Of a stretch of 64,000 nucleotides of DNA, positions 12,809 through 30,553 are shown piece after piece; position 1 is the first letter of the stretch, and the number at the start of each line of letters is the position of its first letter. The notes under the pieces were generated by a model that did not search any database, was not told the origin of the DNA, and saw only the letters and a program-made list of their open reading frames with translations. The stretch is taken from positions 5,056 through 69,055 of the forward strand of contig JAZOOX010000014.1 of the NCBI GenBank assembly GCA_045655245.1, given 5' to 3'. Origin of the DNA: Clostridia bacterium. GTDB taxonomy: Bacteria; Bacillota; Clostridia; RGIG8785. The position numbers and the translations under genes were made by a program.

Positions 12809-12837
12809 TTGACAAACGACGGCAGTAATGGTAAAAT
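12809..12837 (+). promoter_or_regulatory. sigma-A type promoter of folC (divergent from the oadB promoter)
   Basis: TTGACA (12809-12814), 17-bp spacer, TAAAAT (12832-12837). Confidence 0.65.
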
Positions 12838-12862
12838 AAAAAGAAGAAAAAGGAGCGGTTTT

Positions 12863-14472: not shown

Positions 14473-14875
14473 AATGAAAGTTTCTTTTTTATCCCGTTCG
14501 GAAAATGAGGCCTTTGCCCGTACGGCTGTTGCTGCCTTTGCGGCGACTGTTGACCCGACGGTAGAACAGTTAAACGAGGTCAAGACTGCGGTTTCCGAGG
14601 CAGTGACCAACGCCATCGTCCACGGCTACGGCAACGACCGCGGCTGGGTGACGGTTGAAACCAAGCTGGACGGACGGAGGTTGATTTTAACGGTAACCGA
14701 CGAGGGGTGTGGCATTGCTGATGTTCCCCGTGCCATGGAACCTCTATATACCAGCAAACCCGAAGAAGAACGCTCGGGCATTGGGTTTACGGTGATGCAA
14801 ACCTTCACCGACCGTCTTGAGGTACAGTCGGCGGTGGGCAAGGGTACCATCGTGACCATGGAAAAGCAGTTATAA
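14465..14875 (+). CDS. spoIIAB: anti-sigma-F factor (serine kinase)
   Basis: HATPase_c motifs (..EAVTNAIVHGY..; ..DEGCGI..); GTG 14465 follows RBS AAGGAGGG and gives the N-terminus MNEMKVSFL, as in Bacillus SpoIIAB. Confidence 0.9.
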   Translation: MNEMKVSFLSRSENEAFARTAVAAFAATVDPTVEQLNEVKTAVSEAVTNAIVHGYGNDRGWVTVETKLDGRRLILTVTDEGCGIADVPRAMEPLYTSKPEEERSGIGFTVMQTFTDRLEVQSAVGKGTIVTMEKQL

Positions 14876-15556
14876 ATGGGGGCGCAGGAGTTGCGCCTGG
14901 CGCTTTTACAAGCGGCACGGTCGGGTGACCGTGAGGCGGAGGAAGCGTTTGTTTCACAAAATCTGGGTCTGGTTCACGGGTTGGTGTCCCGTTTTGCGGG
15001 GGTGCACGACCGCGAGGAACTGTTCCAAGTCGGGTGTATGGGGTTGCTCCGTGCAGTCCGACGGTTTGACTTTACATACGAAGTGGCTTTTTCCACCTAT
15101 GCCGTCCCCGTGATTTTAGGGGAGATTCGGCAGTTTCTGCGAGGCGACGGGACCGTGCATGTCAGTCGTAGTGCGCGGGAACGCGGGGCGCAGGTCGCCC
15201 GCGGGACAGAGCGGCTGACCCGTGAGTTAGGGCGTCCGCCTACCGTCTCTGAACTGGCAGAGGAGTTGGGAATGACCCCTTTTGAGGTGGCGGAAGCCGA
15301 GGCGGGGCGGCAGGTGCTCCCCTTAAGCGATTGGGAGCAAAGCCTGTCAGTGCGGGATGCCGACCCTGCGGAGCGGGTGGATCTTCGTCGTGCCCTTGCA
15401 GCTTTGCCTGAAAAGGAGCGGCAGGTGTTGGTCCTGCGGTTTTGGCGGGATTGTACGCAAGGAGATGTAGGTCAACGACTGGGTGTTTCACAGACACAGG
15501 TTTCCCGCTGGGAGCGGAGCGCAATTAAACGAATGCAAAGGATGTTGGAAGAATGA
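14876..15556 (+). CDS. sigF: sporulation sigma factor SigF
   Basis: Sigma-70 regions 2-4; directly after spoIIAB. Confidence 0.9.
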   Translation: MGAQELRLALLQAARSGDREAEEAFVSQNLGLVHGLVSRFAGVHDREELFQVGCMGLLRAVRRFDFTYEVAFSTYAVPVILGEIRQFLRGDGTVHVSRSARERGAQVARGTERLTRELGRPPTVSELAEELGMTPFEVAEAEAGRQVLPLSDWEQSLSVRDADPAERVDLRRALAALPEKERQVLVLRFWRDCTQGDVGQRLGVSQTQVSRWERSAIKRMQRMLEE

Positions 15557-16518
15557 ACTGGAAAGAAGTTAGCATTGCCACAACTACCGAAGGAATCGAG
15601 GTTGTGACAGGAAATTTACTGATGATTGGCATTAATGGTGCGTCGGTCACCGACAGTCGGGACTTTGAGGCGTTTTTGAACCATACCGAAACTTACTGGG
15701 ATGCGGTAGAGGACGAGCTGATGGTCTTGCGGGACTGCGAGACCCAGGTGACGGTCTACCTTCCCGAGGACGAGCAAGGAGAGGCACAACTCCGTGACTT
15801 GGACGAGATGCTTGCCCATTTAAAGAATGAAGATACCACGGGGGTATACGGACGCTTGGAGCGGACGGTAACTGTCGTGCGGGAAGAGGACTGGGCAAAC
15901 GAGTGGCGAAAGTATTTTAAACCCTTTACCGTAGGAGAACGGTTGCTGGTCAAACCGTCTTGGGAAGAGTTGGACGTTCCCACCGATCGCATTGTATTAG
16001 AAATAGATCCCGCTTCCAGCTTCGGTACGGGGCAGCATCATACCACCCAGTTGTGCATGGAACTGATGGAAGGTTTAGACTGGTCGGATGCCCGTTTGTT
16101 GGATGTGGGTACGGGCAGTGGCATCCTTGCCATTACGGGATTGCTCCTGGGTGCGAAGTCCGCCAGGGGCATTGATATTGACCTTCATGCAGTGGAGACG
16201 TCGATTGAAAATGTCCGTAAGAATGTGGGTGTGAATGCGGCTTATGAAGGGTTTTGCGGCGACATTGTTGCCGACCGTGCTTTGCAGGAACAGGTCTGTG
16301 GACAGTACGAGGTCATCACGGCAAATATTATTGCCGATGTGATCATCGGTCTGACCGACACCTTTATCACAAACTTGAAAAAAGACGGAATTTTGATTGT
16401 GTCAGGCATCATTGACGACCGCGCTGACGAGGTGGAGGACACCTTGAAAACTGCAGGGTTCCGATTGATTGAAAGAACGGCTCAGGGCGGCTGGGTCGCA
16501 ATGGAATTTACCCGATAA
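15553..16518 (+). CDS. prmA: ribosomal protein L11 methyltransferase
   Basis: PrmA fold; SAM motif LDVGTGSGILAI. Confidence 0.9.
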   Translation: MNWKEVSIATTTEGIEVVTGNLLMIGINGASVTDSRDFEAFLNHTETYWDAVEDELMVLRDCETQVTVYLPEDEQGEAQLRDLDEMLAHLKNEDTTGVYGRLERTVTVVREEDWANEWRKYFKPFTVGERLLVKPSWEELDVPTDRIVLEIDPASSFGTGQHHTTQLCMELMEGLDWSDARLLDVGTGSGILAITGLLLGAKSARGIDIDLHAVETSIENVRKNVGVNAAYEGFCGDIVADRALQEQVCGQYEVITANIIADVIIGLTDTFITNLKKDGILIVSGIIDDRADEVEDTLKTAGFRLIERTAQGGWVAMEFTR

Positions 16519-16530: not shown

Positions 16531-18270
16531 ATGAAAGAATGGTTAAAGACCCTCCGCGACGGATGGCGGCGGGCAAAACAGTTTTCTTGCAGTCGGCGGA
16601 ACAAGTCGGTAAAGGAGTTGTTGGGAATTTTCCGCGATCCCATCCGTGCATCGGCATTGCCTCTTTTGGGTGGGTTGGTGCTTTTGTTACTGGCGGCGGG
16701 AGCGGATGTTATTGCTCCGAAACTGCAGGAAGCGGTTATCGACAGTGTAGTGGAAAAGAGCGGACTGAACCAAACCCTTTTGTTTGGCGCAGGGGTAGCA
16801 TTGCTCGCCCTGGGGGCGTTGCTTTTTCGAACCCTATCCGATTTCCAACTGCACCGCTCGGAAAACAAACTGATTTTAAAAATACAGACCCAGGTCTTTT
16901 CATATTTATTGGGTTTGCCCAAGACCTACTTTGACGGCAAGGAAAAGGATGGCATCATCAACCGCGTGTCGGCTGACATTTACGGGATGCGGAGCGTTCT
17001 GGCGGTGGTGCTTCACTTCTGCGGACAGATTCCCACCTTGCTGGTCAGCGCAGGGTTCCTGATTGCCAAGCATCCTGTGGTGGCGCTGTGGTCGTTGTTA
17101 CCGCTACCCGTCTTTTTTGGGCTTTCCTATATCATCGGGCGCCGTACCCGTGCCCTTGCCTATTTGGCAGCAGACGAGCGTGCGGGAGTCTACGGCGTTA
17201 TCGCCGAGTCGGTTAAGGGTTCGACCCTGATCAAGACTGACGGAGAGCAGGCGGGACAGGTTAAAAAGTTGGAACGCCGCGGCGAGCAGAATCGTCGGAT
17301 CATGCTGGAGCAACGGGCTTTCGGCAGTCTGATGCGATTTTTGGGCGGGCTTTTCCAAAACGGCAGCAAATTGCTGGTGTTCGGCTTCGGTTTTTATATG
17401 ATGTATCGGGGTGAGCTGACCCTGGGCGGCGTGGTAGCAATGTCCACCTATATCGGGATGGTTTACAGTCCTGCCCAAGCCATTGCCCGTGGTATCCTCA
17501 CCTTGCAGGACGGCTTGACCGCATTAGAACGGGTAGCGGAGTTCTATGAGGTTCAGCCTGAGGATGTACAAAGCGGCCAGACCGCCGAAACGTTACGGGG
17601 GGAACTGACCTTTGACAAGGTTTCCTTTTCTTATGGGCAGGAACCTGTGCTGAAAGAGGTTTCCTTTGCTCTTGCCCCCGGAAAGATGCATTATCTGGTC
17701 GGTGAAAGCGGCGTGGGCAAGAGTACCCTGCTCAGCTTGATTTTATGTCTGTACCGCCCTCATACGGGAAAGATTTTCTTTGACGGTGTTGACCAAAAAG
17801 ATTATGCCATCGAGAGTTTAAGACGGCGGATCGCCTATGTTTCTCAGGAATCCGTTTTCTTTTCGGGGACGGTCGCTGATAATTTGGCGGCACAAACAGG
17901 AGCTGACCGTAAAAGGATTATTACGGCGGCGGAGACAGCAAAGATCCATCAGCGGATTTGCGGGTTGCCCGACGGGTATGATACGGTGCTGGAAAGCGGC
18001 GCACCCCTTTTTTCCCAGGGAGAACGCCAACGATTGAGTCTGGCAAGGGCGCTTTTGCGGGATGCGGATATCTATGTAGTGGACGAACCAACGGCGGCAT
18101 TAGACCCTGTAAATCGTGACGAGATACTGGCGGTATTGGATCGCCTTGCCGAGAACAAGACGGTGCTGGTGGTCACTCACCAGTTAAATATGATCCCTGG
18201 AGGGACGCAGGTTCTTCGCCTAAAAGACGGTGCGCTTTTGGAGGTGTCGGCAGATGAGACGATCCTTTGA
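16531..18270 (+). CDS. ABC exporter, fused permease/ATP-binding protein
   Basis: Six-TM domain plus NBD with Walker A GESGVGKST, signature FSQGERQRL, Walker B IYVVDE; no C39 peptidase domain. Confidence 0.8.
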   Translation: MKEWLKTLRDGWRRAKQFSCSRRNKSVKELLGIFRDPIRASALPLLGGLVLLLLAAGADVIAPKLQEAVIDSVVEKSGLNQTLLFGAGVALLALGALLFRTLSDFQLHRSENKLILKIQTQVFSYLLGLPKTYFDGKEKDGIINRVSADIYGMRSVLAVVLHFCGQIPTLLVSAGFLIAKHPVVALWSLLPLPVFFGLSYIIGRRTRALAYLAADERAGVYGVIAESVKGSTLIKTDGEQAGQVKKLERRGEQNRRIMLEQRAFGSLMRFLGGLFQNGSKLLVFGFGFYMMYRGELTLGGVVAMSTYIGMVYSPAQAIARGILTLQDGLTALERVAEFYEVQPEDVQSGQTAETLRGELTFDKVSFSYGQEPVLKEVSFALAPGKMHYLVGESGVGKSTLLSLILCLYRPHTGKIFFDGVDQKDYAIESLRRRIAYVSQESVFFSGTVADNLAAQTGADRKRIITAAETAKIHQRICGLPDGYDTVLESGAPLFSQGERQRLSLARALLRDADIYVVDEPTAALDPVNRDEILAVLDRLAENKTVLVVTHQLNMIPGGTQVLRLKDGALLEVSADETIL

Positions 18271-18697
18271 CAGCCTTTCGATTTCTGCCGCAAAAGAGAT
18301 CCTGACAGCGGTGTTGGCGACAGGGAACCGGTTTCGGTTCACCGCCCACGGGGTCAGTATGAGTCCGTTCATCCGTGACGGAGACACTGTGGAGTTGGCG
18401 CCCGTTCAAAAGATTCGGCTGGGGGATATCCTTCTGGCAGAAAAGAATGGGCGGTTGTTGCTCCACCGCGCCGTGGCAATCAAAAAGGATACGGTGCTTT
18501 TAAAAGGGGATAATTTGAGTACTCCCGACGGGTGGTTTCGAAAAAAAGAAATTTTTGCAGTTGCCGTTAAGGTGAGTCATCACCAAGTGCACCAAAAATG
18601 GGGACTGGAGCGATTTTCGAAAACAGCGGCAGTGCTTTCTCGGTACAATTTTTTGCGAAAAGCTGCTGTTTTTGGCGCAAAGTTTTTAAAAAAGTAA
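18254..18697 (+). CDS. S24/S26-family serine peptidase-like protein (signal-peptidase/LexA fold)
   Basis: Catalytic-Ser motif GVSMSPFIRDGD and downstream Lys (..KGDNL..); overlaps the ABC gene end by 17 nt (translational coupling); no obvious TM helix. Confidence 0.5.
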   Translation: MRRSFDSLSISAAKEILTAVLATGNRFRFTAHGVSMSPFIRDGDTVELAPVQKIRLGDILLAEKNGRLLLHRAVAIKKDTVLLKGDNLSTPDGWFRKKEIFAVAVKVSHHQVHQKWGLERFSKTAAVLSRYNFLRKAAVFGAKFLKK

Positions 18698-18801: not shown

Positions 18802-19395
18802 ATGAAAAAGTATCTCGTAATTGCAACTGTATTGGTTGCTCTGGTAGCGTTGTTCAGCATCTCTGCTTCTGCTGCAGATATCGCTTTAGCTGATGTTCAG
18901 TATACTTCCAGTGCTACTGGTGTTACCATTAACCGTGTTGCTATCGGGCTGTCTGGAGCTCCGGTTCCTTCCGGCGACGGTTATTACACTGTTTTGGCAT
19001 ACACCGGTGCAGAAGATCCTTCTGCTGCAACGATTCTGTTTGTAGGTCAGGAAATTACTCCTATTACCAGCTTTAGTGTAAACCCCGCTTCGCTGAATAA
19101 CAGACAGTTGTATGTAAAGTGTGGCGGTAGTGGTGTGGATCAAGCTGGAAACACAAATGCTACTTATGCTTTTTCCCTGGTTGCTTTTGACGAAAATGGA
19201 ATGGCTTTGGATGTAAATAAGTATACCACAGCTGGTACCAAGAAACTGGAAGTTACCGGTGCAGACTCCATCCTTCTGTATGGCGCAGAGATTAGAAATG
19301 AAGCTGACCCGGCATACGTTGGCTTTGAAGTTCCTGGTGGAGATTCCGACGGTACCTATGCTCACCGTGTATACAGACAGTTTGTTGAACTGTAA
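18802..19395 (+). CDS. secreted protein of unknown function (signal peptide, ASA|AD cleavage site)
   Basis: N-terminal MKKYLVIATVLVALVALFSISASA signal peptide; Ser/Thr/Gly-rich beta-type composition; RBS GGGAGG. Confidence 0.6.
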   Translation: MKKYLVIATVLVALVALFSISASAADIALADVQYTSSATGVTINRVAIGLSGAPVPSGDGYYTVLAYTGAEDPSAATILFVGQEITPITSFSVNPASLNNRQLYVKCGGSGVDQAGNTNATYAFSLVAFDENGMALDVNKYTTAGTKKLEVTGADSILLYGAEIRNEADPAYVGFEVPGGDSDGTYAHRVYRQFVEL

Positions 19396-19442
19396 TTTGT
19401 AGGAACTTTTTCAAAAAATATACCATAGAGGAGTGTGTTACC

Positions 19443-20873
19443 GTGTACAATCGATTGGTACGGGTAGTCGCACTGGCTCTCACAATTGTTTTGACGATGT
19501 CCGTTTCGGTTTTTGCTGAGACGGACATTTCTGACAATTACGCCAGTTCTTCTGCCGTTTATGCTGCTGCAAAAGATGTAATTGCCAACGCCAAGGATAA
19601 GGCTGCAACCATTGATATTTACTTAGACCGCGCGTCTACCTACCTTGCATCTAACCGTACCGCTTTGATCAAAGACGGTTTTGTACTGCCTGCCGATGCA
19701 CCTGCTGCTTTGGCTGCTAACCGGAAGGCGGTAGTAGATCTGCTGGCTGCTGACGGAACAGATTACGAGGATTTAATTAAGACCTTGACCGTCCGTGTTC
19801 CTGCAAATTACTCGCTGGATTACGGCACCTTGGTTGTAGATCGTTCTACCATGGAATCCATTCGCGCTGAAGGGTTTTCCCACCTGGTTTTTGAAAATGA
19901 TCTGTTTGCTGTTCGTCTGTCTATGGTAGACTATTTGTCCACCATTCCCGAATCGGTTAAAACAGTTAAGATTTTTGCAGGCGAAACACGCACCGATGTA
20001 CCTCAGTCTGTTTTAGACAAGGCGGGTTCTATGCCTATTTTGGTTTTCCGTGAATACCATGACGGTGTTCAGGTCAACAACAACTATTCCAAAAACGCTG
20101 TTGCCTTCATTGTAAAGAGTTCCATGTACAATGTCGCAGGGCGTTCTCCTTCGGAAAATATGTTCTTTAGGTATGACCTGAAGACGAACAGTGTTCATTT
20201 TGTTGTCAATTACGGTTATTCTGTTGCAACCGACACTGCTTCCTTTGGCGTCGAGGACGGCAACTACTTTATCTTCTTGCCCAAGGAAGCCGAAATGCTG
20301 AAGCCTGTCATCCCTGGCGGTAGCAGTAACAAGTCCGGATACGAAGATGTTTTGGACGAGCATTGGGCTTGTGAGTCCATTCGTAAACTTTCCGGCCGTG
20401 ACGTTATCAGCGGCGTAGGCAATGGGATGTTTGAACCCGAGTCTTTTGTCACTCGGGAACAGTTTGCCAAGCTGTTGGCCGTCGGCTTTGATATGCCCGA
20501 CGCAAGTGATGCGCCTTTCACCGATGTTCCTGCCGATGATTGGGCACATCCCTTCATTTCCCGTGTTTATGCCAAGGGTGTAACCAAGGGAATTGGTGGA
20601 AACCTCTTTGGTTACGGTCAGCGAATCACCCGTCAGGATATGGCGGTTATGATTTACAAGGTCCTGTCTGAAAACGGTGGTCTGGACGATATTAATCGCG
20701 ACAACTTCACCTTTGTTGACGATTCGTCGATTGCCGATTATGCCCGCGATGCCGTTTACGCAATGCGCGCAAAGGGGATTATCAACGGTAACCCTGACGG
20801 TACCTTCTGTCCCAACGATTTTGCCACCCGTGCACAGGCCGCAACAATGCTTTGCTCGGCATTGGGGATTTGA
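19443..20873 (+). CDS. cell-surface protein with C-terminal S-layer-homology (SLH) repeats
   Basis: GTG start after RBS AGAGGAG; signal peptide; three C-terminal SLH-like repeats (..FVTREQFAKLL..; ..ITRQDMAVMIYKVL..; ..FATRAQAATMLCSAL..). Confidence 0.7.
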   Translation: MYNRLVRVVALALTIVLTMSVSVFAETDISDNYASSSAVYAAAKDVIANAKDKAATIDIYLDRASTYLASNRTALIKDGFVLPADAPAALAANRKAVVDLLAADGTDYEDLIKTLTVRVPANYSLDYGTLVVDRSTMESIRAEGFSHLVFENDLFAVRLSMVDYLSTIPESVKTVKIFAGETRTDVPQSVLDKAGSMPILVFREYHDGVQVNNNYSKNAVAFIVKSSMYNVAGRSPSENMFFRYDLKTNSVHFVVNYGYSVATDTASFGVEDGNYFIFLPKEAEMLKPVIPGGSSNKSGYEDVLDEHWACESIRKLSGRDVISGVGNGMFEPESFVTREQFAKLLAVGFDMPDASDAPFTDVPADDWAHPFISRVYAKGVTKGIGGNLFGYGQRITRQDMAVMIYKVLSENGGLDDINRDNFTFVDDSSIADYARDAVYAMRAKGIINGNPDGTFCPNDFATRAQAATMLCSALGI

Positions 20874-20875: not shown

Positions 20876-21169
20876 ATGGCTTTAGCAGAATCGGTTGTCT
20901 TCAAAAAACACTCCGAACTGGTCGAGCGTGAGATTGAAGGAGAAATCCTGGTTATCCCGATTATGGCCGGTGTCGGTGATGCGGATGCCAATATGTATTC
21001 TTTTAATAACCAGGGCGCGGCAATATGGGGTCTTATCGATGGCGAGACCTCGTTGGGTGAAATTGCAGACCGTCTTTGTGAAGAGTACGAGGTAACCCGC
21101 GACCGTGCGTTACAGGAAACAGTTGTGTTTCTGGAGGAACTTGCGGAACGGAACTTGATTTTACAGTAG
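20876..21169 (+). CDS. PqqD-family protein (RiPP recognition element-like)
   Basis: 97 aa; ..EGEILVIPIMAGVGDADANMYSFNNQGAAIWGLIDGETSLGEIADRLCEEYEV..ETVVFLEELAERNLI matches the PqqD/RRE fold pattern; ATG 20876 three nt after the SLH gene stop. Confidence 0.75.
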   Translation: MALAESVVFKKHSELVEREIEGEILVIPIMAGVGDADANMYSFNNQGAAIWGLIDGETSLGEIADRLCEEYEVTRDRALQETVVFLEELAERNLILQ

Positions 21170-21209: not shown

Positions 21210-22322
21210 ATGGAGCAACGTCGTACACCGACTTCATTTGAATTTTTAAAAAAGAAAGCGGCGGATAAAACGCCGCTTTCTTTAAGTGTAGAGTTAACGG
21301 CGCGTTGCAACAACGATTGCCGACATTGTTATATCAATGTCCCCGCAGGGGATATCGCTGCCAAGGAAAAGGAACTCCCCCTTACCGAATGGGAAAGGAT
21401 TGCCGATATGGCACGAGATGCAGGAGTGCTCTGGTGCCTGATTTCAGGCGGGGAACCCATGCTTCGCAGTGATTTTTTTGACCTTTACATGATGTTTAAA
21501 CGTAAGGGGTTTTTGATCACTCTCTTTACCAATGCAACCTTAATGACCGAAGAGGCAGTGGCGTTTTTCAAGCGGTATCCGCCCTATAAAATTGAGGTTT
21601 CGGTCTACGGCGTTACCGACGATACTTATTTTGCGGTCACAGGAAAACGTGGGTACTGTCAGCGGATGAAAGAGGGCATTGAACGGTTGCGTGCTGCGGG
21701 GCTATACACCTGCTTGAAAACCCCTTTGATTCGTTCGAATCAGCAGGAGGCAGAAGCAATTTACCAATACTGTCGGGAACGGTCTTCTGAACCATTTCGT
21801 TTTGATACCATTCTACACAACCGGGTGGACTTTGACGCCGACCGCAATCGCTCGATTGCTGAAGAACGGTTAACACATCAACAGGTACTGGACTTGGAAG
21901 GCTTACGTCCTGAACGGTTGGAAATTTTAAAAAATGCGTGTCTGAACTCGCAACGTCAACTGCGTATCGACCCGGTCACGGGAGAACAACCGTTGTTTCG
22001 TTGTCGTGCGGGGGCGGAAAGCATCACGGTTGATCCTTATGGCAGAATGCGCCTTTGTGCTATGTTATCGGGTCCTGAATTCTTATATGATTTGAAGAAG
22101 GGCACCATTGATGAGGCCATGGGACCATTTCGGGATAGGATTTTGACAATGCCCAACAAAAACCCCGCCTTTGAACGGTGCCGCGGCTGTCGGGCGTTGC
22201 CCCTTTGCAACTGGTGTCCCGGCCGTGCCCTTTTGGAGATGGGAACAGTGGATGCCTTTATGCCAGAACTTTGCCGATTGGCAGAGAAACGCTTTGATGC
22301 TTTGACCAAGGAGGATGTGTAA
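21210..22322 (+). CDS. radical SAM/SPASM-domain peptide-modifying enzyme
   Basis: CNNDCRHC (C-x3-C-x2-C) rSAM cluster motif; C-terminal SPASM motif CRGCRALPLCNWC (C-x2-C-x5-C-x2-C). Confidence 0.85.
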   Translation: MEQRRTPTSFEFLKKKAADKTPLSLSVELTARCNNDCRHCYINVPAGDIAAKEKELPLTEWERIADMARDAGVLWCLISGGEPMLRSDFFDLYMMFKRKGFLITLFTNATLMTEEAVAFFKRYPPYKIEVSVYGVTDDTYFAVTGKRGYCQRMKEGIERLRAAGLYTCLKTPLIRSNQQEAEAIYQYCRERSSEPFRFDTILHNRVDFDADRNRSIAEERLTHQQVLDLEGLRPERLEILKNACLNSQRQLRIDPVTGEQPLFRCRAGAESITVDPYGRMRLCAMLSGPEFLYDLKKGTIDEAMGPFRDRILTMPNKNPAFERCRGCRALPLCNWCPGRALLEMGTVDAFMPELCRLAEKRFDALTKEDV

Positions 22323-23197
22323 TGCGGGACGAAAAATGTTACGGGATGTATGCCGCGGCGGGAATTACCTTTCGGCTGTTTTCCGAACGCCCTGTTACAA
22401 CTTCCACTTTTGCACCCAAAATGGACAAGTTTGCCGTTGCCGAGACGGGCGCCGAGGTGGTGGACGTCCATCACCATTTTACCATGCCCCAACGGCGGTT
22501 CGATACATCACCTGTGTACAACACCTCCCCCTGGACCATTTACCAGGAAGGGGAGACCTGGCACTATGTTTGGACCAATAAGCTGACCCGGACGGTGGAA
22601 TACTACGCCGTTTTTACCGAGGAATACCATCAGGTACACATCTACCACTACAACACCGATCTTTGGGATCGGGGGAATCACGTGGGACTGTTGATGCGCA
22701 CCAATGATCAGGTGCTGTTTTTGCCCCTGCTTTGGCAGCGGGGTGGATTTGTGCTTCATTCCTCGGCGGTGGTTCAGGGGGATCGTGCCATTGTTTTGGT
22801 GGGGCATTCGGGCGCGGGGAAGAGTACTGCTACCAATCACTTTGGAAAAGATGCAGTGGTCATCAGCGAAGACCGCAATATTATTCTACCCGAGAATGAC
22901 GCGTTTTACGTTTACGGTTCCTGGATTCATTATAACAACGATCGTATCACCAATGACCGTAAGCGAGTAGATGCGTTGTACTTCATCAAAAAGGCCAACG
23001 AAACCCGTTTAGAACCTTTAAAACCCTTGACCGCAATACACGAAACGCTGTCCCATGTCGCTCGTGGATACGCCAATGCCAAGGGCTGGAATGCCACCGT
23101 TGATGCAGTGGAAAAATTTATTCAAAAAAATTTATGTTTTTACTTGCATTTTGAAAAAGATGGTGGTATAATGAATTTACTAAATCGTCAAAATTGA
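22322..23197 (+). CDS. HPr-kinase C-terminal-domain-like P-loop protein (putative peptide kinase)
   Basis: Walker A GHSGAGKST as in HprK; ATGA start/stop overlap with the rSAM gene. Confidence 0.65.
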   Translation: MRDEKCYGMYAAAGITFRLFSERPVTTSTFAPKMDKFAVAETGAEVVDVHHHFTMPQRRFDTSPVYNTSPWTIYQEGETWHYVWTNKLTRTVEYYAVFTEEYHQVHIYHYNTDLWDRGNHVGLLMRTNDQVLFLPLLWQRGGFVLHSSAVVQGDRAIVLVGHSGAGKSTATNHFGKDAVVISEDRNIILPENDAFYVYGSWIHYNNDRITNDRKRVDALYFIKKANETRLEPLKPLTAIHETLSHVARGYANAKGWNATVDAVEKFIQKNLCFYLHFEKDGGIMNLLNRQN

Positions 23198-23233
23198 TTT
23201 AATAATGTAAAGTTTCATTGGGAGGTATATGAG

Positions 23234-23395
23234 AATGAAAAAGGTATGGGAAACTCCTGAAGTTGTAGCAGTAGTACATGGTAGCCCTGAAGAAGCTGTT
23301 TTGATGACTTGCTATGATGATTTGACTTGCGAATTCGATGCAGCCGAAAGCACTGGGGCTGAATTTCTGACTGTTGATCTGGCTGCTATCAGCTG
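23234..23395 (+). CDS. putative RiPP precursor peptide (53 aa; below ORF-track cutoff)
   Basis: RBS GGGAGG (23219-23224) 9 nt before ATG 23234; MKKVWETPEVVAVVHGSPEEAVLMTCYDDLTCEFDAAESTGAEFLTVDLAAIS; W-x-x-P leader motif, acidic two-Cys core, C-terminal Ser; terminator follows. Confidence 0.5.
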
Positions 23396-23430
23396 ATTTT
23401 TACATTTTTCACAACCAAAAATGACAATTA

Positions 23431-23470
23431 CCAAGTTGTTGGGATACCGACAGCTTGGTTTGTTGTGTCT
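23431..23470 (+). terminator. terminator after the precursor-peptide gene
   Basis: CCAAGTTG..(loop)..CAGCTTGG hairpin followed by a T-rich tract. Confidence 0.6.
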
Positions 23471-23535
23471 TTGAACAAACGAGCTGTATCGGAAATACGA
23501 AAGGCGGGGAAAGGGGACTTTCTCTGCTTTTTTTC

Positions 23536-23564
23536 TTTACATTAATAGGAGACTGTGGTACAAT
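23536..23564 (+). promoter_or_regulatory. sigma-A type promoter of metY
   Basis: TTTACA (23536-23541), 17-bp spacer, TACAAT (23559-23564). Confidence 0.6.
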
Positions 23565-23619
23565 AAAGCCAATACCAAAAGGGGGTTGCCCCTGCTTATA
23601 CCAAACGGAGGTGTCTCGA

Positions 23620-24885
23620 ATGAGAATTGAAACCAAGTGTATTCAAGAAGGATATGAGCCGAAAAACGGAGAACCGAGAATGCTCCCCATTTTTCAGAGC
23701 ACGACCTATAAATACGACAGCGCCGAGCATTTAGGGAAACTTTTTGACTTAGAGGCTCCGGGGCATATGTATACCCGCATCTCCAATCCTACGGTGGATG
23801 CGGTTGAAAAGAAGATTGCCGCTTTGGAAGGCGGTATCGGTGCTCTTTGTACCTCGGGCGGTCAGGCAGCCAGCCTGATTTCGGTCATGAACATCTGTCG
23901 TGCAGGAGACCATATCATCAGTTCCTCTGCCATTTACGGCGGTACCTTGAATCTTTTTGACGTGACCTTGCGGAAGTTTGGCATCGAGACTACTTTTATT
24001 CCCCCGGATGCAGACGAGGAGACTTTAGAAGCTGCCTTCCGTGAAAACACCAAGCTGGTCTTTGCTGAGAGTCTGTCCAACCCTTCTCTGGCGGTAGTGG
24101 ACCTGGAACTCTTTTCCCGCATTGCCCATGCTCACGGGGTTCCGCTGATTATTGACAACACCTTCCCCACGGCGGTGAACTGCCGTCCCTTCGAGCACGG
24201 TGCTGACATTGTGATTCATTCTACTTCTAAGTACATGGATGGCCATGGCGTTTCGTTGGGCGGTGTCATTATTGATTCGGGTAAATTCCAGTGGTCTCCC
24301 GAAAAGTTCCCTGACCTGGTTGAGCCGGACGAGTCCTACCACGGCGTTAGCTACGTTCGTGATTTTGGTGCGGCGGCGTACATTACCAAGGCCCGTGTCC
24401 AGCTAATGCGTGACCTGGCATCGTCCCCCTCGCCCTTTAACGCTTTTTTGCTGAATTTGGGGCTTGAGACCCTACCTTTACGGATGAAGCAGCATTGTGA
24501 AAATGCGATGAAGGTTGCCGCATTTTTGGATGCCGAGGACAAGGTGGCATGGGTTTGCCATCCCTCTTTAAAATCCCATCCCCAGTATGATTTGGCGCAA
24601 AAATACTTGAAGGACAGTGGTTGCGGCGTCATCTCCTTTGGTGTGAAAGGCGGACGGGAAGCTGCAATGAAACTGATGAACAGCCTACAACTTGCCAAGA
24701 TTGTAGTCCACGTTGCAGATGCCCGTACTTGTGTACTCCATCCCGCATCTACCACCCATCGTCAGCTGACCGACCAACAGTTAGTCGAGTGTGGTGTGAA
24801 ACCCGAAATGATCCGTCTGTCGGTGGGTATTGAGCATGCTGACGACATCATTGATGACCTGAAGCAGGCGTTGGCAAGATTATGA
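23620..24885 (+). CDS. metY: O-acetylhomoserine sulfhydrylase (PLP-dependent Cys/Met metabolism family)
   Basis: Family signature (..PIFQSTTYKYD..; ..YTRISNPT..; ..HSTSKYMDGHG..); RBS GGAGGTG before ATG 23620; the listed ORF start (23455) lies in the upstream terminator/promoter region. Confidence 0.85.
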   Translation: MRIETKCIQEGYEPKNGEPRMLPIFQSTTYKYDSAEHLGKLFDLEAPGHMYTRISNPTVDAVEKKIAALEGGIGALCTSGGQAASLISVMNICRAGDHIISSSAIYGGTLNLFDVTLRKFGIETTFIPPDADEETLEAAFRENTKLVFAESLSNPSLAVVDLELFSRIAHAHGVPLIIDNTFPTAVNCRPFEHGADIVIHSTSKYMDGHGVSLGGVIIDSGKFQWSPEKFPDLVEPDESYHGVSYVRDFGAAAYITKARVQLMRDLASSPSPFNAFLLNLGLETLPLRMKQHCENAMKVAAFLDAEDKVAWVCHPSLKSHPQYDLAQKYLKDSGCGVISFGVKGGREAAMKLMNSLQLAKIVVHVADARTCVLHPASTTHRQLTDQQLVECGVKPEMIRLSVGIEHADDIIDDLKQALARL

Positions 24886-26149: not shown

Positions 26150-26599
26150 ATGAAAGTCAGCGATATCATTGAAAGGTTTTTAAAGGAACTGTTAGAGGAG
26201 AATGGCGGGACGGTAGAGATTTGCCGTAATGATCTGGCGACGCGATTTCACTGTGTGCCCTCCCAGATCAACTATGTGATTGCCACGCGGTTTAAGAATG
26301 AGAACGGCTATGCTGTGGACAGCCGTCGGGGCGGCGGCGGGTCGGTACGGATTCGGCGGGTACAGCCTGCAGGCGGGAATGTGGTGATGCATCTGGTCAA
26401 CCATATGGGGGATCGGGTGAGTTATCAAGAGATGGCTTATTTTCTGCAGGATCTGCTGTCTGCAGGAATTTTAAGTGAACGGGAGTGCAAACTGTTATTG
26501 GGAGCACTGTCCGACCGCGTACTCGGGGCCAACATCGAGCATCGGGAGCGTGTTCGTGCCGTTGCGTTAAAGAACGCCCTGGTGCATTTAATCAGTTGA
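26150..26599 (+). CDS. ctsR: class III stress-gene transcriptional repressor CtsR
   Basis: N-terminal winged-HTH and conserved Gly-rich loop (..RRGGGGSVRIRR..). Confidence 0.9.
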   Translation: MKVSDIIERFLKELLEENGGTVEICRNDLATRFHCVPSQINYVIATRFKNENGYAVDSRRGGGGSVRIRRVQPAGGNVVMHLVNHMGDRVSYQEMAYFLQDLLSAGILSERECKLLLGALSDRVLGANIEHRERVRAVALKNALVHLIS

Positions 26600-26609
26600 G
26601 GTGATAAAA

Positions 26610-27101
26610 ATGATTTGTCAACATTGTAAGCAACAGCCTGCCACCACTTATTTCAGCGAGACGGTGAACGGGCATCAGAAGGAATTGTATCTTTGCGCTG
26701 AGTGCGCCGCCAAGCATCAGTCCTCCTTTTTGAATGTGGGGGATTTCATGCAGGGGTTTTTGGGACAGGGGTATGTGCCCCGGAAAGAAAAAGCTTGTCC
26801 CGTCTGCAAGATGACCGAAAGGGCGTTTTATAAGCACAGCAAGTTTGGTTGCGCCGCCTGTGCCCGTACCTTTGAAGCCCAGACCCGCAGGGTCTTGCAA
26901 CAGGTGCAGGGGAGCGGTCGGCATGTGGGAAAGGTTCCTGCCCACGGGCAGGAAACCGTCCGCAAACAGCGGGAGTTGGAACACTTAGAGAAAGAACTCC
27001 GTCAGGCGATTGCAGCCGAGGAGTATGAAGAAGCGGCACGGCTACGGGATACCATCCGTGACCTGAAAGGAGGGAATGACGGATGTGGTACAACGAAATA
27101 G
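26610..27101 (+). CDS. mcsA: McsA-like protein (zinc-finger plus UVR domain; McsB activator)
   Basis: CxxC pairs (CQHCK..CAEC; CPVCK..CAAC) and C-terminal UVR motif (..EEYEEAARLRDTIRDLK). Confidence 0.8.
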   Translation: MICQHCKQQPATTYFSETVNGHQKELYLCAECAAKHQSSFLNVGDFMQGFLGQGYVPRKEKACPVCKMTERAFYKHSKFGCAACARTFEAQTRRVLQQVQGSGRHVGKVPAHGQETVRKQRELEHLEKELRQAIAAEEYEEAARLRDTIRDLKGGNDGCGTTK

Positions 27102-28090
27102 GACCCGAGCAGGATGTGGTGTTAAGCACCCGCATCCGTCTGGCACGAAACCTTGCGGACCTGCCTTTTTCGGTGTTTATGGGGGCGGAGGAAGCCGCCG
27201 AACTTTTAAAACGGGTGGAGGGGGTATTGCCCCGACTGGGTGGATACCTAACGATGTATCGGTTGGATGGGATGGACGGAATTACCCGTCAGAAACTGGT
27301 GGAAGAGCATTTAATCAGCAAAGAACTGCAGGGAGGCGGCGGAGTGTTGCTCTCTGACGATCGCAAGGTGAGCGTGTTGGTCAACGAGGAGGACCATTTG
27401 CGGATTCAGGCGGTGGTGGCAGGGTTTGACCCCGCCGGCGCGCTGGATTTGGCGAACCGTGTGGACGATGCTTTGGAAGAAGAGTTTGCTTATGCATTTG
27501 ACCCCGAGTGGGGGTATCTGACCTCCTGCCCGACCAACATGGGAACGGGGATGCGGCTGAGCGTGATGGTACATCTTCCCGCTCTGCAACAGTTAAAGCA
27601 AATTGGGAATCTGCGGGAGTCGTTGTCTAAAATCGGACTGACTGTTCGCGGGTTGTACGGTGAAGGTTCGGAAGCGGACGGTGCGGTGTATCAAATCTCC
27701 AATCAGATTACCATGGGCGTGACCGAAGCCGAGTTGGTGGAAAAGGTCACTGCTGCCATGAACCAGGTGATTAAGATGGAACGCTCTGCTGTTCGGGAGT
27801 TGAAGGATCGGTTTTTAGAGCGGTTTTCCGACCCTGTTTGGCGGGCTTACGGTGTACTTTGTTACGCTCGAAAGCTCAGCGGTCGGGAGTTTATGAACTT
27901 ATACTCTCAGGTGCGGTTGGGGATTGCTTTAGGGATCATCCCCCTGGAAGAGTCTCCGTCTTTTCGGGAATTATTTGTTGCCGCCCAGGCTGGGATGCTG
28001 ATGGCGGAAGCAGGGGAAGAGCTGTCCCCCGAAGAACGGGATTTGGCACGGGCGGACAAGGTTCGTGCCGTTTTGAAAGGAGCGATATAA
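27083..28090 (+). CDS. mcsB: protein-arginine kinase McsB
   Basis: Guanidino-kinase signature CPTNMGTGMR. Confidence 0.9.
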   Translation: MWYNEIGPEQDVVLSTRIRLARNLADLPFSVFMGAEEAAELLKRVEGVLPRLGGYLTMYRLDGMDGITRQKLVEEHLISKELQGGGGVLLSDDRKVSVLVNEEDHLRIQAVVAGFDPAGALDLANRVDDALEEEFAYAFDPEWGYLTSCPTNMGTGMRLSVMVHLPALQQLKQIGNLRESLSKIGLTVRGLYGEGSEADGAVYQISNQITMGVTEAELVEKVTAAMNQVIKMERSAVRELKDRFLERFSDPVWRAYGVLCYARKLSGREFMNLYSQVRLGIALGIIPLEESPSFRELFVAAQAGMLMAEAGEELSPEERDLARADKVRAVLKGAI

Positions 28091-30553
28091 ATGAAAAACG
28101 AACTGCGATTTACCCGACTTGCCGAGCGGGTTTTGCGCCATGCACAGGAAATCGGTGAGAGTTCGGGCTACGGATATGTGGGCAGTGAAATGATTTTGGC
28201 AGGGATGTTGCGAGAAGCCGAGGGTGTTGCCTGTCAGGTGCTTTCCGACCATGGCGTGACCGAAGAAAAGGTCACCGAAAAGGCGTTGGAGATTTTGGGT
28301 GAACCCAGCGGTTCGGGGACCCCTGCCGCACTGACTCCCCGCACCAAGCGGGTGATTGAGCTGTCCGCCGTGGAAGCGGCACGGCAGGGACACGGATACA
28401 TCGGTACCGAGCATCTGCTGATGGCGATTTTGCGGGAAGGTGCCAACATCGCTGTCCGTGTATTGGGCGAGTTGGGGGTTTCTGCCCGTGATTTGTACCA
28501 AGAGGTATTAAAGCGCATCAACGGCGAGGACTCTGTGACCGAAGAAACCGTCCCGCCTAAGGCGAAGGCGGGGTCTGCCAAGGGGAGAAAGACGCCCACC
28601 CTGGACCAGTTTGGTCGGGACCTGACTGAACTGGCGCGGGCGGGGAAGTTTGACCCGATTATTGGTCGGGGCGAAGAAATCGAACGGGTGACTCAGATTC
28701 TAAGCCGCCGCACCAAGAACAACCCCTGTCTGATCGGGGAGCCGGGGGTGGGCAAGACTGCTGTGGCAGAAGGTTTGGCGCAGGAGATTGCCGCGGGAAA
28801 CGTACCCGAGCTGCTTCGCAACAAGCGGGTGATTGCCATTGACCTGTCTTCTATGGTGGCAGGCGCCAAGTACCGCGGGGAGTTTGAAGAACGTTTAAAG
28901 AAAGCATTAGAAGAAATTGTTACTGCGGGGGATGTGATCCTCTTTATCGACGAGGTGCATACCATTGTGGGTGCAGGTGCCGCTGAGGGTGCCATCGACG
29001 CTGCCAACATCCTAAAACCGTTGTTGGCGCGGGGGGAACTCCAGCTGATTGGTGCCACTACTCTGAATGAATATCGGAAGTATATTGAAAAGGATGCGGC
29101 GCTGGAGCGGCGGTTCCAGCCGATTACAGTAGGTGAGCCGACAGTGGAAGAAACGGTTGCCATCCTAAAGGGGATCCGTGATAAGTACGAAGCCCATCAC
29201 GCCGTAGCCATTACCGATGGCGCGTTAGAAGCGGCGGCAAAGCTTTCGGCACGGTATATCACCGATCGATTCCTCCCTGATAAGGCAATTGATCTGGTGG
29301 ATGAGGCGGCATCGCGAATGAAACTGCAGACGGTGACCGCTCCTGCAGAGCTACGGGAGATGGAAGAGCGTTTGTCCCAAATCGGTCGTGAGAAAGAGGA
29401 GGCTGTCCGCGGACAAGATTTTGAGAAAGCGGCTACCCTTCGTGACGAGGAGAATCGGGTTGCCGAGGAACTGAAGTCGTTGAAGTCGGTTTGGGAACAG
29501 GAGACCCAAAACGCCGCCCGAAAGGTTACCGAGGAGGAGATTGCCGAAGTGGTTGCCAAGTGGACGGGGATTCCCACCCGCCGTTTGCAGGAGGAAGAAG
29601 GGGAGCGGTTGCTTCGCTTAGAGGAGACTTTGCACAACCGTGTCATCGGTCAGGATGATGCCGTTTCGGCGGTTGCCCGTGCCATTCGCCGTGGCAGAGT
29701 CGGGTTAAAAGACCCCAAGCGACCCATTGGTTCCTTTATCTTTTTGGGGCCTACGGGTGTGGGTAAGACCGAGCTTTGCAAAGCCCTTGCCGAAGCGCTG
29801 TTCGGGGACGAGGACGCCATGATTCGGGTGGATATGTCTGAGTATATGGAAAAGCACTCGGTCTCCCGTTTGGTCGGTTCGCCTCCCGGATATGTAGGTT
29901 ATGATGACGGCGGCCAGCTCACTGAAAAGGTCCGCCGCAAGCGCTATTCCGTTGTTTTGTTTGACGAGATTGAAAAGGCGCATCCTGACGTGTTCAATAT
30001 CCTGCTTCAGGTACTGGAGGACGGGATACTGACCGACAGTCAGGGACGAAAGGTGGACTTTCGTGACACGGTGGTGATTATGACTTCCAACGTAGGTGCA
30101 CGACGGATTACCGAGACTCAGCGCCGTCTGGGTTTTGCTGCCGAAGAACAGACTGCGGGCAGTGAGGAAATCCGTGAGCAGGTAATGGGCGAACTGAAAC
30201 AGGCCTTCCGTCCCGAGTTTTTAAACCGTATTGATGACGTCATTGTTTTTGCCCAGTTGCAAAAGCCCCAGATACGCATCATTGCCGAGAAGATGCTGGA
30301 GCGGGTGACTGCACGGATGGTGGACCATGGCATTGCCCTTCGCGTTACCGACGAAGCGTTGGACCATTTGGCGGAAGCGGGCTTTGACCCCGTTTACGGA
30401 GCAAGACCCTTGCGCCGTGCCATCCAGTCCCAGGTGGAGGATTTACTGGCGGAAGGAATGCTGTCGGGGAAGGTTTTGACCGATGCGGATGCGGTAATCG
30501 GCGTACAGGACGGGAAGATTGCCCTGGTTTCGGAAGAAAATTTGGGAAAATGA
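28091..30553 (+). CDS. clpC: ATP-dependent Clp protease ATP-binding subunit ClpC
   Basis: Clp N-repeats, two AAA+ modules (GEPGVGKT and GPTGVGKT Walker A), UVR linker; fourth gene of the ctsR operon. Confidence 0.95.

Follow-up and report, generated by a model that had tools for sequence, protein, structure and literature searches.

A 53-codon gene beside a radical-SAM/kinase-fold cassette in a Clostridia genome most likely encodes the precursor of an uncharacterised family of modified, exported peptides

The window analysed here is a 64,000-nucleotide stretch of contig JAZOOX010000014.1 of a Clostridia bacterium (assembly GCA_045655245.1, positions 5,056 to 69,055), and all features described below lie on its forward strand. 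The locus begins with an MsbA-like ABC exporter of 579 aa, with fused permease and ATPase (16531-18270), which is conserved as the first gene after prmA. It is followed by a homologue of S24/archaeal-type (SipW-like) signal peptidase I, a predicted leader peptidase of 147 aa counted from the ATG at 18254 (18254-18697). The latter is recognised by Pfam Peptidase_S24 and, below the cut-off, by NCBIfam sigpep_I_arch. Its orthologs have 147-152 aa, and in 46 family members G33-x-[S in 36, C in 10]-M-x-P38, H71-R72, D86 and D92 are invariant or nearly so. Two secreted proteins come next (18802-20873): one of 197 aa with a signal peptide and no family hit (18802-19395), and one of 476 aa with three SLH domains (19443-20873). 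It is uncertain whether they belong to the system. They keep their position in three orthologous loci (designated L002, L016 and L017), but are absent from the wider family described below, being found in only 2 and 3 of 124 loci, and those include the close relatives.

The enzymatic core follows. A PqqD-type RiPP recognition protein of 97 aa is encoded at 20876-21169 (the mechanical ORF starts at TTG 20852). It matches Pfam PqqD at 1.8e-16, its best NCBIfam hit is lasso_PqqD_Bac at 39.7 bits against a cut-off of 80, and the nearest solved chains are lasso recognition proteins, namely TbiB1 (5v1u), then 9x8z_B, 9x90_B and TfuB1. The next gene (21210-22322) encodes a 370-aa Pfam Radical_SAM enzyme with C33-x3-C-x2-C and a SPASM-like C-terminal region with seven Cys (C-x17-C, then C-x2-C-x5-C-x2-C...C), as read from the translation. 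Pfam SPASM itself is not matched at E <= 0.01, although the alignment to ScmE spans residues 21-355. The best NCBIfam hits (ScmE, PqqE, NirJ, AlbA and others) are all far below their cut-offs, and the nearest solved structures are SkfB, MoaA, SuiB and PqqE. The stop codon of this gene overlaps the ATG of the next (ATGA), which encodes a 291-aa P-loop protein with an HPr-kinase/PEPCK fold (22322-23197). A Pfam ScmC (PF27840) hit is precomputed for the identical protein and for all homologues, although a scan with a local Pfam copy did not return this model. A sequence search against solved structures gave only P-loop-level matches, and the relation to HprK is distant in sequence (E 0.02), but a fold search identified the HprK/PEPCK fold, and the His, the G-x-S-G-x-G-K-S/T P-loop and the downstream Asp are conserved. 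PEPCK is as good a structural match as HprK and aligns over more residues.

Directly downstream lies the gene that is the subject of this study. The mechanical ORF runs from 23229 to 23396 (55 aa), but the ATG at 23229 is absent from four of the seven aligned loci (L016, L017, L009 and L012), so that the second ATG, at 23235, is the conserved start. With the TGA stop at 23394-23396, the gene (23235-23396) has 53 codons and encodes MKKVWETPEVVAVVHGSPEEAVLMTCYDDLTCEFDAAESTGAEFLTVDLAAIS. The Shine-Dalgarno sequence GGGAGG (23220-23225), 9 nt upstream of the start, is invariant in the seven aligned loci. In the product, a leader with W5-x-x-P8-x-V10 and H15-G-S-P-E-E-A-V-L23 is followed by the conserved block T25-C26-[YF]-D-x-x-x-C32-x-F34, a variable stretch, and an invariant C-terminal Ser53.

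The initial annotation had proposed this ORF from sequence alone, and the ORF is indeed present. The ribosome-binding site and its spacing, the two Cys (C26 and C32), the W-x-x-P motif and the C-terminal Ser were all given correctly. In contrast, the coordinates 23234-23395 are one base off at each end, the gap between the stop of the HprK-like gene (23197) and the metY promoter (23536-23564) is about 340 bp and not 220 bp, and the downstream hairpin starts 34 nt and not 40 nt after the stop. The leader/core boundary drawn in the initial annotation is not established. The expectation that the gene would be missing from existing annotations is only partly right. Gene callers do call this ORF, the identical 53-aa product is already on record from an NCBI-derived contig, and relatives are deposited as 'hypothetical protein', so that the gene lacks a name rather than having been missed.

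Loss of the reading frame in related genomes had been named beforehand as the observation that would disprove a coding function. It was not found. The frame, the start codon, both Cys and the C-terminal Ser are conserved among the homologues. Over the first 35 codons in six orthologous loci, pairwise dN/dS is 0.05-0.25 in 14 of 15 pairs, the exception (0.64) being the closest pair, which has very few differences, and the variable columns fall 9/3/20 on codon positions 1/2/3. The gene order is also conserved. ABC exporter, S24 protein, the two secreted proteins, PqqD, radical SAM enzyme, ScmC and peptide lie in that order between prmA and metY in L002, L016 and L017 (although metY is not reached in L002), and the peptide gene follows ScmC directly in every shorter contig. 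The interpretation of the initial annotation, an unannotated RiPP-type precursor gene next to HprK-like and radical SAM genes, is therefore supported.

The gene appears to have its own expression signals. A putative promoter, TTGCAT (23144-23149), a 17-nt spacer ending in TGg, and TATAAT (23167-23172), lies inside the last 54 nt of the ScmC-like coding sequence and follows an invariant A/T-rich stretch that begins at about 23108. The hexamers were read directly from the sequence, since a consensus scan did not list the site, its -35 hexamer matching at only 3 of 6 positions. However, the DNA is invariant across seven loci, and in ScmC codons 263-282, 93% of the amino-acid-invariant codons also have an invariant third position, against 0-33% in every other 20-codon block of the gene (the short final block, codons 283-291, shows 75%). 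Downstream of the stop, a 13-pair hairpin (23430-23459), followed by TTTGTTGTGTC, is probably a 3' end, stabiliser or weak terminator of a short peptide transcript. In seven sequence variants 96.7% of cells are paired, against 10-52% in slid controls, and two pairs show compensatory changes (U-A to C-G, A-U to G-C). A second, stronger terminator-like hairpin (23499-23532) with its T run (to 23538) lies directly before the metY promoter (TTTACA, 17 nt, TACAAT; 23536-23564), and T run and promoter are conserved in the aligned loci where metY follows. An Rfam search of 22800-23800 found nothing at E <= 1, so the region is not a riboswitch or a known small RNA.

The leader contains a match to the [Y/W]xxPx[L/V/I/F/A] motif that is bound by discrete recognition proteins (PMC13381572). 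In the window peptide it reads W5-E-T-P8-E-V10, W5 and P8 are invariant in all subfamily members, and position 10 is V or L. Against curated lasso peptide models, the peptide gives only faint hits, the best being NF033534 (rhodolasso) at 12.2 bits against a cut-off of 30, and covering the leader only.

The peptide belongs to a reduced, gut-Clostridia branch of a much larger unnamed family (KKxWxxPELxVLVRxxPEEAVLxxCK...C-x5-S-COOH). The peptide alignment has no sufficiently conserved stretch for a direct search, and loci were therefore retrieved with a degenerate DNA pattern, which returned at least 119 loci in species-representative genomes of more than ten phyla, against about 1 expected by chance. 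The family comprises at least 330 protein clusters, all 'hypothetical', and is widespread in anaerobes. Its cassettes resemble SynChlorMet. Two large repetitive proteins (2871 aa and 1521 aa) that ranked high in the profile search were discarded as artefacts, because their scores are sums of 12-20 repeats worth about 5 bits each from Ig-like domains. The enzymes co-occur with the peptide, but since the genome scan returned fixed 8-kb blocks, many peptides sit at block edges, only 21 have at least 3 kb on both sides, and the co-occurrence figures are lower bounds. Several precursors per locus and per genome occur. The radical SAM enzyme of the window is an ortholog of one class of the wider family, rSAM2, with scores of 280-320 bits, and this class is retained in every cassette type seen. 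The terminal residue is Ser in 114 of 126 wider-family peptides, against 9% Ser elsewhere in their cores, and in 106 of 126 the last Cys is exactly six residues before the terminal Ser. The window subfamily lacks this C-x5-S-COOH spacing, and the role of its terminal Ser may therefore differ. In at least 20 loci of the wider family, ScmC is fused to a radical SAM/SPASM domain. As both this fusion and the C-x5-S-COOH motif are missing from the window, we considered that the two might go together, but this is not supported, because another type of wider-family cassette (L018) has the motif with only an unfused ScmC and an rSAM2-like enzyme.

Taken together, the data make it likely that the ORF encodes the precursor (A) peptide of a ribosomally synthesised, post-translationally modified and exported peptide, made by a reduced version of a SynChlorMet-like cassette. 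The sequence analysis itself establishes, from its substitution pattern, a translated gene under purifying selection, flanked by a conserved putative promoter and a conserved 3' hairpin, with a leader motif of the class bound by lasso-type PqqD proteins among its N-terminal 25 residues, in a conserved locus that encodes such a protein, one radical SAM/SPASM-like enzyme, an HprK/PEPCK-fold protein, a SipW-type peptidase with intact catalytic residues and an MsbA-like exporter. The arrangement of promoter and hairpin would allow a short transcript to be made in excess over the enzyme genes. Everything that concerns binding, catalysis and export is inferred, and the chemistry rests on analogy. 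In this model, the PqqD protein binds W5, P8 and V10 and presents the peptide to the enzymes. The radical SAM enzyme would then modify the T25-C26-[YF]-D-x-x-x-C32-x-F block, most likely by a thioether (sacti- or ranthi-type) or similar cross-link from the two invariant Cys, although the enzyme matches no characterised maturase family above its cut-off. The ScmC protein would use ATP to phosphorylate a hydroxyl, most likely that of Ser53. HprK-like kinases phosphorylate Ser of peptide precursors in linear polyphosphorylated peptides (LPP), and in paeninodin they act on the C-terminal Ser (cited second-hand from PMC11705953). However, the LPP kinase LppK phosphorylates Ser3 of the core and not a C-terminal Ser, and the frequent fusion of ScmC to a radical SAM domain could mean that it serves the radical enzyme rather than acting as an independent Ser kinase. 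The SipW-like protein would remove the leader, as has been shown experimentally for a SipW-type peptidase acting together with a recognition protein in LPP. By analogy with the F-E-T|A site of LppA, the cut may follow L23-x-T25, but with low confidence, since the site is not conserved enough across the wider family to be called. Finally, the ABC protein would export the product.

Several alternatives were weighed, and all appear unlikely to varying degrees. The peptide could be a linear phosphopeptide of the LPP type, with Ser phosphorylation as the defining modification, an accessory or absent contribution of the radical SAM enzyme, and Cys that stay free or form a disulfide. The leader motif class is shared, and of the five LPP core functions four are present (SipW-like peptidase, discrete recognition protein, HprK-fold protein and MsbA-like exporter), whereas the NTP transferase is absent. 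However, no radical SAM gene occurs in the LPP description or its supplements, and the leader, KVWETPEVVAVVHGSPEEAVLMT, agrees with the LPP consensus YxxPxVLxHQxIxFETxxS only in the xxPxV part. Moreover, the overlap of the radical SAM gene with the ScmC start codon and the retention of rSAM2 argue for a core role, and both Cys are invariant. It is similarly doubtful that ScmC leaves no phosphate on Ser53 and instead activates a hydroxyl or carboxylate for a follow-up reaction, for example elimination of phosphorylated Ser to dehydroalanine and ring closure, or acts as an ATP-dependent partner of the radical SAM enzyme. The fusions, the fixed Cys spacing in the wider family, which suggests a link from Cys to the terminal residue, and the good structural match to PEPCK speak for this view. 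On the other hand, the window subfamily has no Cys at position -7 yet keeps both ScmC and the terminal Ser, no lyase or cyclase candidate is encoded, and the known peptide-directed HprK homologues leave phosphate on the product.

A role as precursor of an intracellular redox cofactor, in the manner of PQQ or mycofactocin, is improbable. PqqE and the mycofactocin maturase are among the better, though sub-threshold, matches of the radical SAM enzymes in this family, and MftC acts on the C-terminal residue of its peptide. However, the conserved exporter and signal-peptidase-type leader peptidase, the hypervariable region between the Cys block and the C-terminus, and the multiple precursors are typical of secreted peptides. 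Least likely of all is a paeninodin-like lasso peptide. This reading could draw on the WxxP leader, the lasso-type recognition protein, the HprK-fold neighbour, the C-terminal Ser, a Thr two residues before a possible core start (T25-C26|Y27), and acidic residues at positions 7 and 9 of that hypothetical core. It is effectively refuted by the absence of an Asn-synthetase-like cyclase and a transglutaminase-like B2 cysteine protease, neither of which was found among the nine locus proteins or among the 12 of 14 window ORFs of at least 448 aa given to a family scan (8764-10296 and 12686-14056 being left out), and the locus boundaries are fixed by housekeeping genes in orthologs. In addition, Tyr is not known to occur as residue 1 of a lasso core.

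A bolder reading, which we regard as about as likely as not, is that the window peptide and its relatives are the long-missing substrates of SynChlorMet-like radical SAM/HprK-like cassettes, and define a new RiPP class. Such a class would combine a lasso-type WxxP leader, one to three radical SAM enzymes acting on Cys, an HprK/PEPCK-fold enzyme, often fused to a radical SAM domain, acting at an almost invariant C-terminal Ser (C-x5-S-COOH in most members), and leader removal by a SipW-type peptidase. The ruminant-gut Clostridia version, with one radical SAM enzyme and two Cys, would be the minimal form, and with that the simplest system in which to solve the chemistry. It needs only four proteins and a 53-aa peptide, so it is a practical entry point. 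Radical-SAM-modified peptides are a productive source of new chemistry and of narrow-spectrum antimicrobials. The enzymes of this family have so far been catalogued only in silico, and no substrate is named in any source that we could search. Literature searches on SynChlorMet and its TIGR accessions, on the PEEAVL motif and on HprK or HPr kinase together with radical SAM found nothing relevant, and those on ScmC and on SPASM with HPr returned only unrelated fields. The system joins parts known from three different RiPP classes, namely a lasso-type leader and recognition protein, a paeninodin/LPP-type kinase fold, an LPP-type SipW leader peptidase and a sactipeptide-type radical SAM enzyme, and we found no report of this combination. 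The near-invariant C-terminal Ser and the fixed C-x5-S-COOH spacing give a sharp hypothesis for the role of the kinase-fold protein, and the family deserves a model of its own, so that its members are no longer labelled 'hypothetical protein'.

Among described systems, the LPP cluster lppAKBSDN of Paenibacillus alginolyticus (Popov et al., Nat Commun 2026, PMC13381572) shares with the present locus a discrete PqqD-type protein that, in LPP, binds a [Y/W]xxPx[hydrophobic] leader, a SipW-type signal-peptidase-I homologue with a Ser/His/Asp triad, an HprK-like P-loop protein, an MsbA-like exporter, and a precursor with conserved N-terminus and variable C-terminal part. It differs in lacking the radical SAM/SPASM enzyme, which is present here and in every related cassette, in having an NTP transferase, and in its leader, and the invariant Cys and C-terminal Ser of the present peptide contrast with the targeting of Ser3 by LppK. 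Paeninodin-type lasso clusters (C-A-K-B1-B2-D), with an HPr-kinase homologue specific for the C-terminal Ser, share the WxxP leader variant typical of Bacillota, a lasso-B1-like recognition protein, an HprK-fold protein and the C-terminal Ser of the precursor, but have a macrolactam cyclase and a B2 protease in place of the radical SAM enzyme and the serine peptidase found here.

Sactipeptide and ranthipeptide maturation by AlbA, SkfB and CteB/PapB-type enzymes likewise involves a radical SAM enzyme with an extra C-terminal Cys-rich region, leader recognition through a PqqD-type fold, and Cys in the modified region, and SkfB is the nearest solved structure by sequence. Here, however, the recognition protein is separate rather than fused to the enzyme, a kinase-fold protein and a SipW-type peptidase accompany the system, thioether formation is only inferred, and the family models score far below cut-off (AlbA 65 against 850, StsB 44.3 against 625, with PapB hit only weakly and only by relatives). 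The SynChlorMet cassette (TIGR04248 ScmD, TIGR04249 ScmC, TIGR04250 ScmE, TIGR04251 ScmF), an in-silico-defined system for which we found no experimental characterisation, has the same component types: an HprK-like ScmC protein, a PqqD homologue and PqqE-like radical SAM/SPASM proteins. Its models are the best or near-best NCBIfam matches, yet all scores lie far below the equivalog cut-offs (ScmC 22.8 against 125, ScmD 22 against 100, ScmE 76.1 against 400, ScmF 57.3 against 400), with the same result for a canonical wider-family locus (L089). The window and its orthologs have one radical SAM gene rather than the two of SynChlorMet, whereas canonical wider-family loci have two plus a fused third domain, and the present locus also has a peptidase and an exporter. 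The SynChlorMet precursor is reportedly described as unidentified in NCBIfam, whereas for the cassettes described here a precursor family can be named.

The window contains an ORF at 23229-23396 on the + strand, which opens with two in-frame ATG codons. The second of these, at 23235, gives the 53-aa product proposed in the initial annotation, MKKVWETPEVVAVVHGSPEEAVLMTCYDDLTCEFDAAESTGAEFLTVDLAAIS, and is preceded at a distance of 9 nt by GGGAGG (23220-23225). In four of the seven aligned loci the upstream ATG is replaced (ATA/ATAG), whereas the MKK start and the GGGAGG are invariant. The gene is therefore located at 23235-23396 including the stop codon, and the coordinates assigned initially, 23234-23395, are off by one base at each end. 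Two further details need correction. The downstream hairpin (23430-23459) starts 34 nt after the stop codon rather than 40 nt, and is followed by a second terminator-like site with a T run (23499-23532), just before the metY promoter (TTTACA, 17-nt spacer, TACAAT) at 23536-23564. The intergenic gap is about 340 bp rather than 220 bp. Apart from these small errors, the original observation of a short peptide gene at this position is confirmed. An Rfam search found no known RNA family in the region, and in particular no S-box or T-box leader for metY. The TTG-initiated ORF called mechanically at 23455-24885 overextends metY, the real start of which is the ATG at 23620, 7 nt after a GGAGG and downstream of this promoter.

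The ORF is a gene. A search of 5.8 billion proteins returned the identical product, unnamed and from an NCBI-derived contig, together with five clusters at 68-78% identity. The gene is not invisible to gene callers, but lacks a name. DNA was retrieved for six distinct orthologs. Over the 35 gap-free N-terminal codons, the Nei-Gojobori dN/dS ratio is 0.05-0.25 in 14 of 15 pairs, the exception being a value of 0.64 in the closest pair, which has very few differences. Synonymous divergence reaches 1.2, and variable columns fall 9/3/20 on codon positions 1/2/3. Conservation of the reading frame in relatives had been named beforehand as the decisive criterion, and the frame is conserved.

The 3' end of the upstream, ScmC-like gene is invariant at the DNA level in seven loci. 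In codons 263-282 of this gene, 93% of the codons with an invariant amino acid also have an invariant third base, compared to 0-33% in every other 20-codon block and 75% in the short final block (codons 283-291). The frozen stretch contains TTGCAT (23144-23149), a 17-nt spacer ending in TGg, and TATAAT (23167-23172), and is preceded by an A/T-rich tract. We interpret it as a conserved extended -10 promoter serving the peptide gene, which a consensus scan did not report because the -35 hexamer matches at only 3 of 6 positions. The hairpin downstream of the gene is 96.7% paired in seven sequence variants, against 10-52% for slid controls, and two of its pairs change on both sides. Together, these features predict, from sequence alone, a short and separately transcribed peptide mRNA, an arrangement that is typical where a precursor must outnumber its enzymes.

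Between prmA and metY, the window encodes, in this order, an MsbA-like ABC exporter (16531-18270), an S24/archaeal-type signal peptidase I homologue (18254-18697), a 197-aa secreted protein without family hit (18802-19395), a protein with three SLH domains (19443-20873), a PqqD-type protein (20876-21169), a single radical SAM enzyme with a SPASM-like Cys-rich C-terminus (21210-22322), a 291-aa P-loop protein (22322-23197) whose ATG overlaps the rSAM stop codon, and the peptide gene. The same order is kept in the orthologous loci L002, L016 and L017, and the peptide follows the P-loop gene in every shorter contig. The secreted protein and the SLH-domain surface protein keep their position between the peptidase and PqqD genes in all close relatives, but are absent from the wider family described below. 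They may be cargo, immunity or anchoring proteins, or simply an insertion. The locus is inserted between sporulation and housekeeping genes (14125-16518 and 26150-30553), with a spoIIAA-like STAS gene, an anti-sigma kinase, a sigma-F-like factor and prmA upstream, and metY, an rlmL-like gene, ctsR, mcsA, mcsB and clpC downstream. The same flanks are found in L016 and L017, so that this is a stable chromosomal position rather than a mobile island. Elsewhere in the window (55847-61934), genes for a phage terminase large subunit, a P22/SU10-type portal and a capsid show that a prophage or phage remnant begins near 55.8 kb.

The PqqD protein is closest to lasso peptide recognition proteins, namely to the NCBIfam lasso_PqqD_Bac model and to the solved chains TbiB1, 9x8z_B and 9x90_B. 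In an alignment with 45 relatives, the S24 protein keeps the G-x-S-M-x-P motif, H-R and two Asp residues, matching the Ser/His/Asp arrangement of SipW-type enzymes. The predicted nucleophile (S35 in the window protein) is Ser in 36 and Cys in 10 of these 46 sequences, while the His-Arg and the two Asp stay invariant, which points to a Ser/Cys nucleophile swap within a single leader peptidase family. A lasso cyclase is not encoded in the locus, nor was one found among the large ORFs of the window that were scanned, a set that did not include those at 8764-10296 and 12686-14056.

The peptide represents one branch of a large, unnamed family. A profile of the six homologues, run against 1.84 billion cluster representatives, recovered about 25 small proteins that share the leader. 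Two large proteins with repeated Ig-like domains, P0023 (2871 aa) and P0024 (1521 aa), also reached E-values of 1e-18 and 1e-06, but only through the addition of 12-20 repeats of about 5 bits each, which is a warning for profile searches with short acidic peptides. We then scanned one genome per GTDB species with a degenerate DNA pattern for W..P.....V...PEE.VL..C. The pattern carries about 40 bits, so that about one chance match is expected in 1.2e12 positions, yet the scan returned at least 119 loci, with 132 matches in these. A profile search of the 5.8-billion-protein set gave at least 330 clusters. Where a source names one, it is as a hypothetical protein, apart from one evident JGI mislabel (P0108, a flavin reductase), and none has a Pfam domain. 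NCBIfam and Pfam have no model for these peptides, and only faint lasso leader hits were obtained. Hosts include Chloroflexota, Desulfobacterota, Omnitrophota, Actinomycetota, Acidobacteriota, Planctomycetota, Clostridia and two methanogen MAGs.

The consensus of the wider family is KKxWxxPELxVLVRxxPEEAVLxxCK, followed by a variable Gly/Pro/Ser-rich stretch with usually three more Cys residues. Features that were not required by the search pattern are strikingly regular. Of 126 unique peptides, 114 end in Ser and 6 more in Thr, although Ser makes up only 9% of the rest of the core, 106 have exactly six residues after the last Cys (C-x5-S-COOH), and 124 have Lys after the first Cys. The distant YxxP-type peptide of locus L018 (10345-10473) has the same ending. 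In three loci of the wider family, L048 (74-385), L071 (4472-5140) and L077 (14-412), Omnitrophota MAG DAOWIN01, the leader and core lie at the end of longer ORFs of 103-222 aa. In L071, a PqqD-like domain and a Lys/Glu-rich repeat linker precede the KKKWxKPQLIVLVRGKPEE leader in the same frame, which would be a recognition protein fused to its own substrate, unless an internal start is used.

When the loci were searched with the proteins of the window, the usual order was found to be ScmC, rSAM1, the peptide or peptides, PqqD, the S24 peptidase, rSAM2 and an ABC exporter. In at least 20 loci of the wider family, for example L089 (5-1786), L128 (3629-5614), L064 (1482-3539) and L094 (3920-5962), the ScmC/HprK-like domain is the C-terminal half of a protein of about 650-720 aa with an N-terminal radical SAM/SPASM domain. 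The fusion was checked with NCBIfam and Pfam on L089 and L128. In the window the two are separate genes with overlapping stop and start codons. However, the single radical SAM enzyme of the window belongs to a different class from the fused domain, as it is the ortholog of rSAM2 (280-320 bits, against 150-186 bits for the other two classes). The NCBIfam SynChlorMet models (ScmC/D/E/F) are among the best matches, but score far below their cut-offs, and we therefore call the cassettes SynChlorMet-like, and not members. One Eubacteriales MAG (CAZPEP01; loci L029, L101, L107, L108, L117 and L126) carries at least 12 precursor genes on several contigs, including four in a row in L117, and loci L062 and L081 have three each. 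Thirty of the 8-kb blocks that were examined hold a precursor without a recognisable enzyme gene. Some of these are block-edge effects, but five of the 21 peptides with at least 3 kb on both sides look like true orphans.

A distant ScmC (P0021, 25% identity) is found in a four-gene unit of ScmC, PqqD, an rSAM2-like enzyme and a 42-aa ORF. The latter reads MKKPYEKPAVIYKERIEARASSCGVSPSKAGTGTGCSAPFVS and has a YxxP leader, two Cys and the C-x5-S-COOH ending. The minimal recurring unit thus consists of ScmC, a recognition protein, rSAM2 and a peptide with two Cys and a terminal Ser. The window subfamily, with peptides of 50-53 aa, comes from ruminant and other animal gut samples, including one MAG from water-deer colon, and represents this minimal unit plus the peptidase and the exporter. 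Its peptide has C26-x5-C32 and a very acidic variable part, and keeps the terminal Ser, but has a hydrophobic residue instead of Cys at position -7.

The interpretation of the ORF as a precursor peptide gene, put forward in the initial annotation, is supported, and it is likely that the product is a RiPP precursor processed by the enzymes of its locus. The computational analysis establishes that the gene is real, that its expression signals are conserved, that the leader carries the recognition motif, that the enzymes have the folds and catalytic residues described, and that the family and its invariant positions exist. The sequence of events is inferred, in part from related systems. Discrete PqqD-type proteins bind [Y/W]xxPx[L/V/I/F/A] leaders and present them to the peptidase, and the SipW-type peptidase LppS needs the recognition protein in order to cut (PMC13381572). 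HprK-like kinases phosphorylate a Ser of the precursor, namely Ser3 in LPP and reportedly the C-terminal Ser in paeninodin (PMC11705953, citing Zhu et al. 2016). By analogy, the PqqD protein would bind W5, P8 and V10, the radical SAM enzyme would cross-link the peptide through C26 and C32, ScmC would phosphorylate Ser53, the S24 protein would cut near L23-x-T25|C26, as at F-E-T|A in LppA, and the ABC protein would export the product. A thioether is the commonest outcome for SPASM enzymes acting on Cys-containing cores. The two specific chemistries, the cross-link and the phosphorylation, are each no more than tentative, and considerably less certain than the assignment as a precursor. The frequent fusion of rSAM and ScmC and the C-x5-S-COOH spacing leave room for the alternative that ScmC activates the terminal residue for a ring-forming step, rather than leaving a phosphate on the product.

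We found no paper in the openly searchable literature, which does not extend to subscription-only articles, that describes a RiPP system with radical SAM and HprK-like enzymes or this peptide family. The RiPP logic is familiar, but the combination of parts and the precursor family are not described in that literature. The real interest of the peptide lies in the family to which it belongs, and in the fact that the window carries the simplest version of it. The closest characterised system is LPP, which shares the recognition protein, the SipW-type peptidase, the HprK-like enzyme and the exporter, but has no radical SAM enzyme, has an NTP transferase, and differs in its leader consensus. Paeninodin-type lasso clusters share the WxxP leader, the B1-like protein, the kinase and the terminal Ser, but need a cyclase and a B2 protease that are absent here. 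Sactipeptide and ranthipeptide systems, finally, share the enzyme class only.
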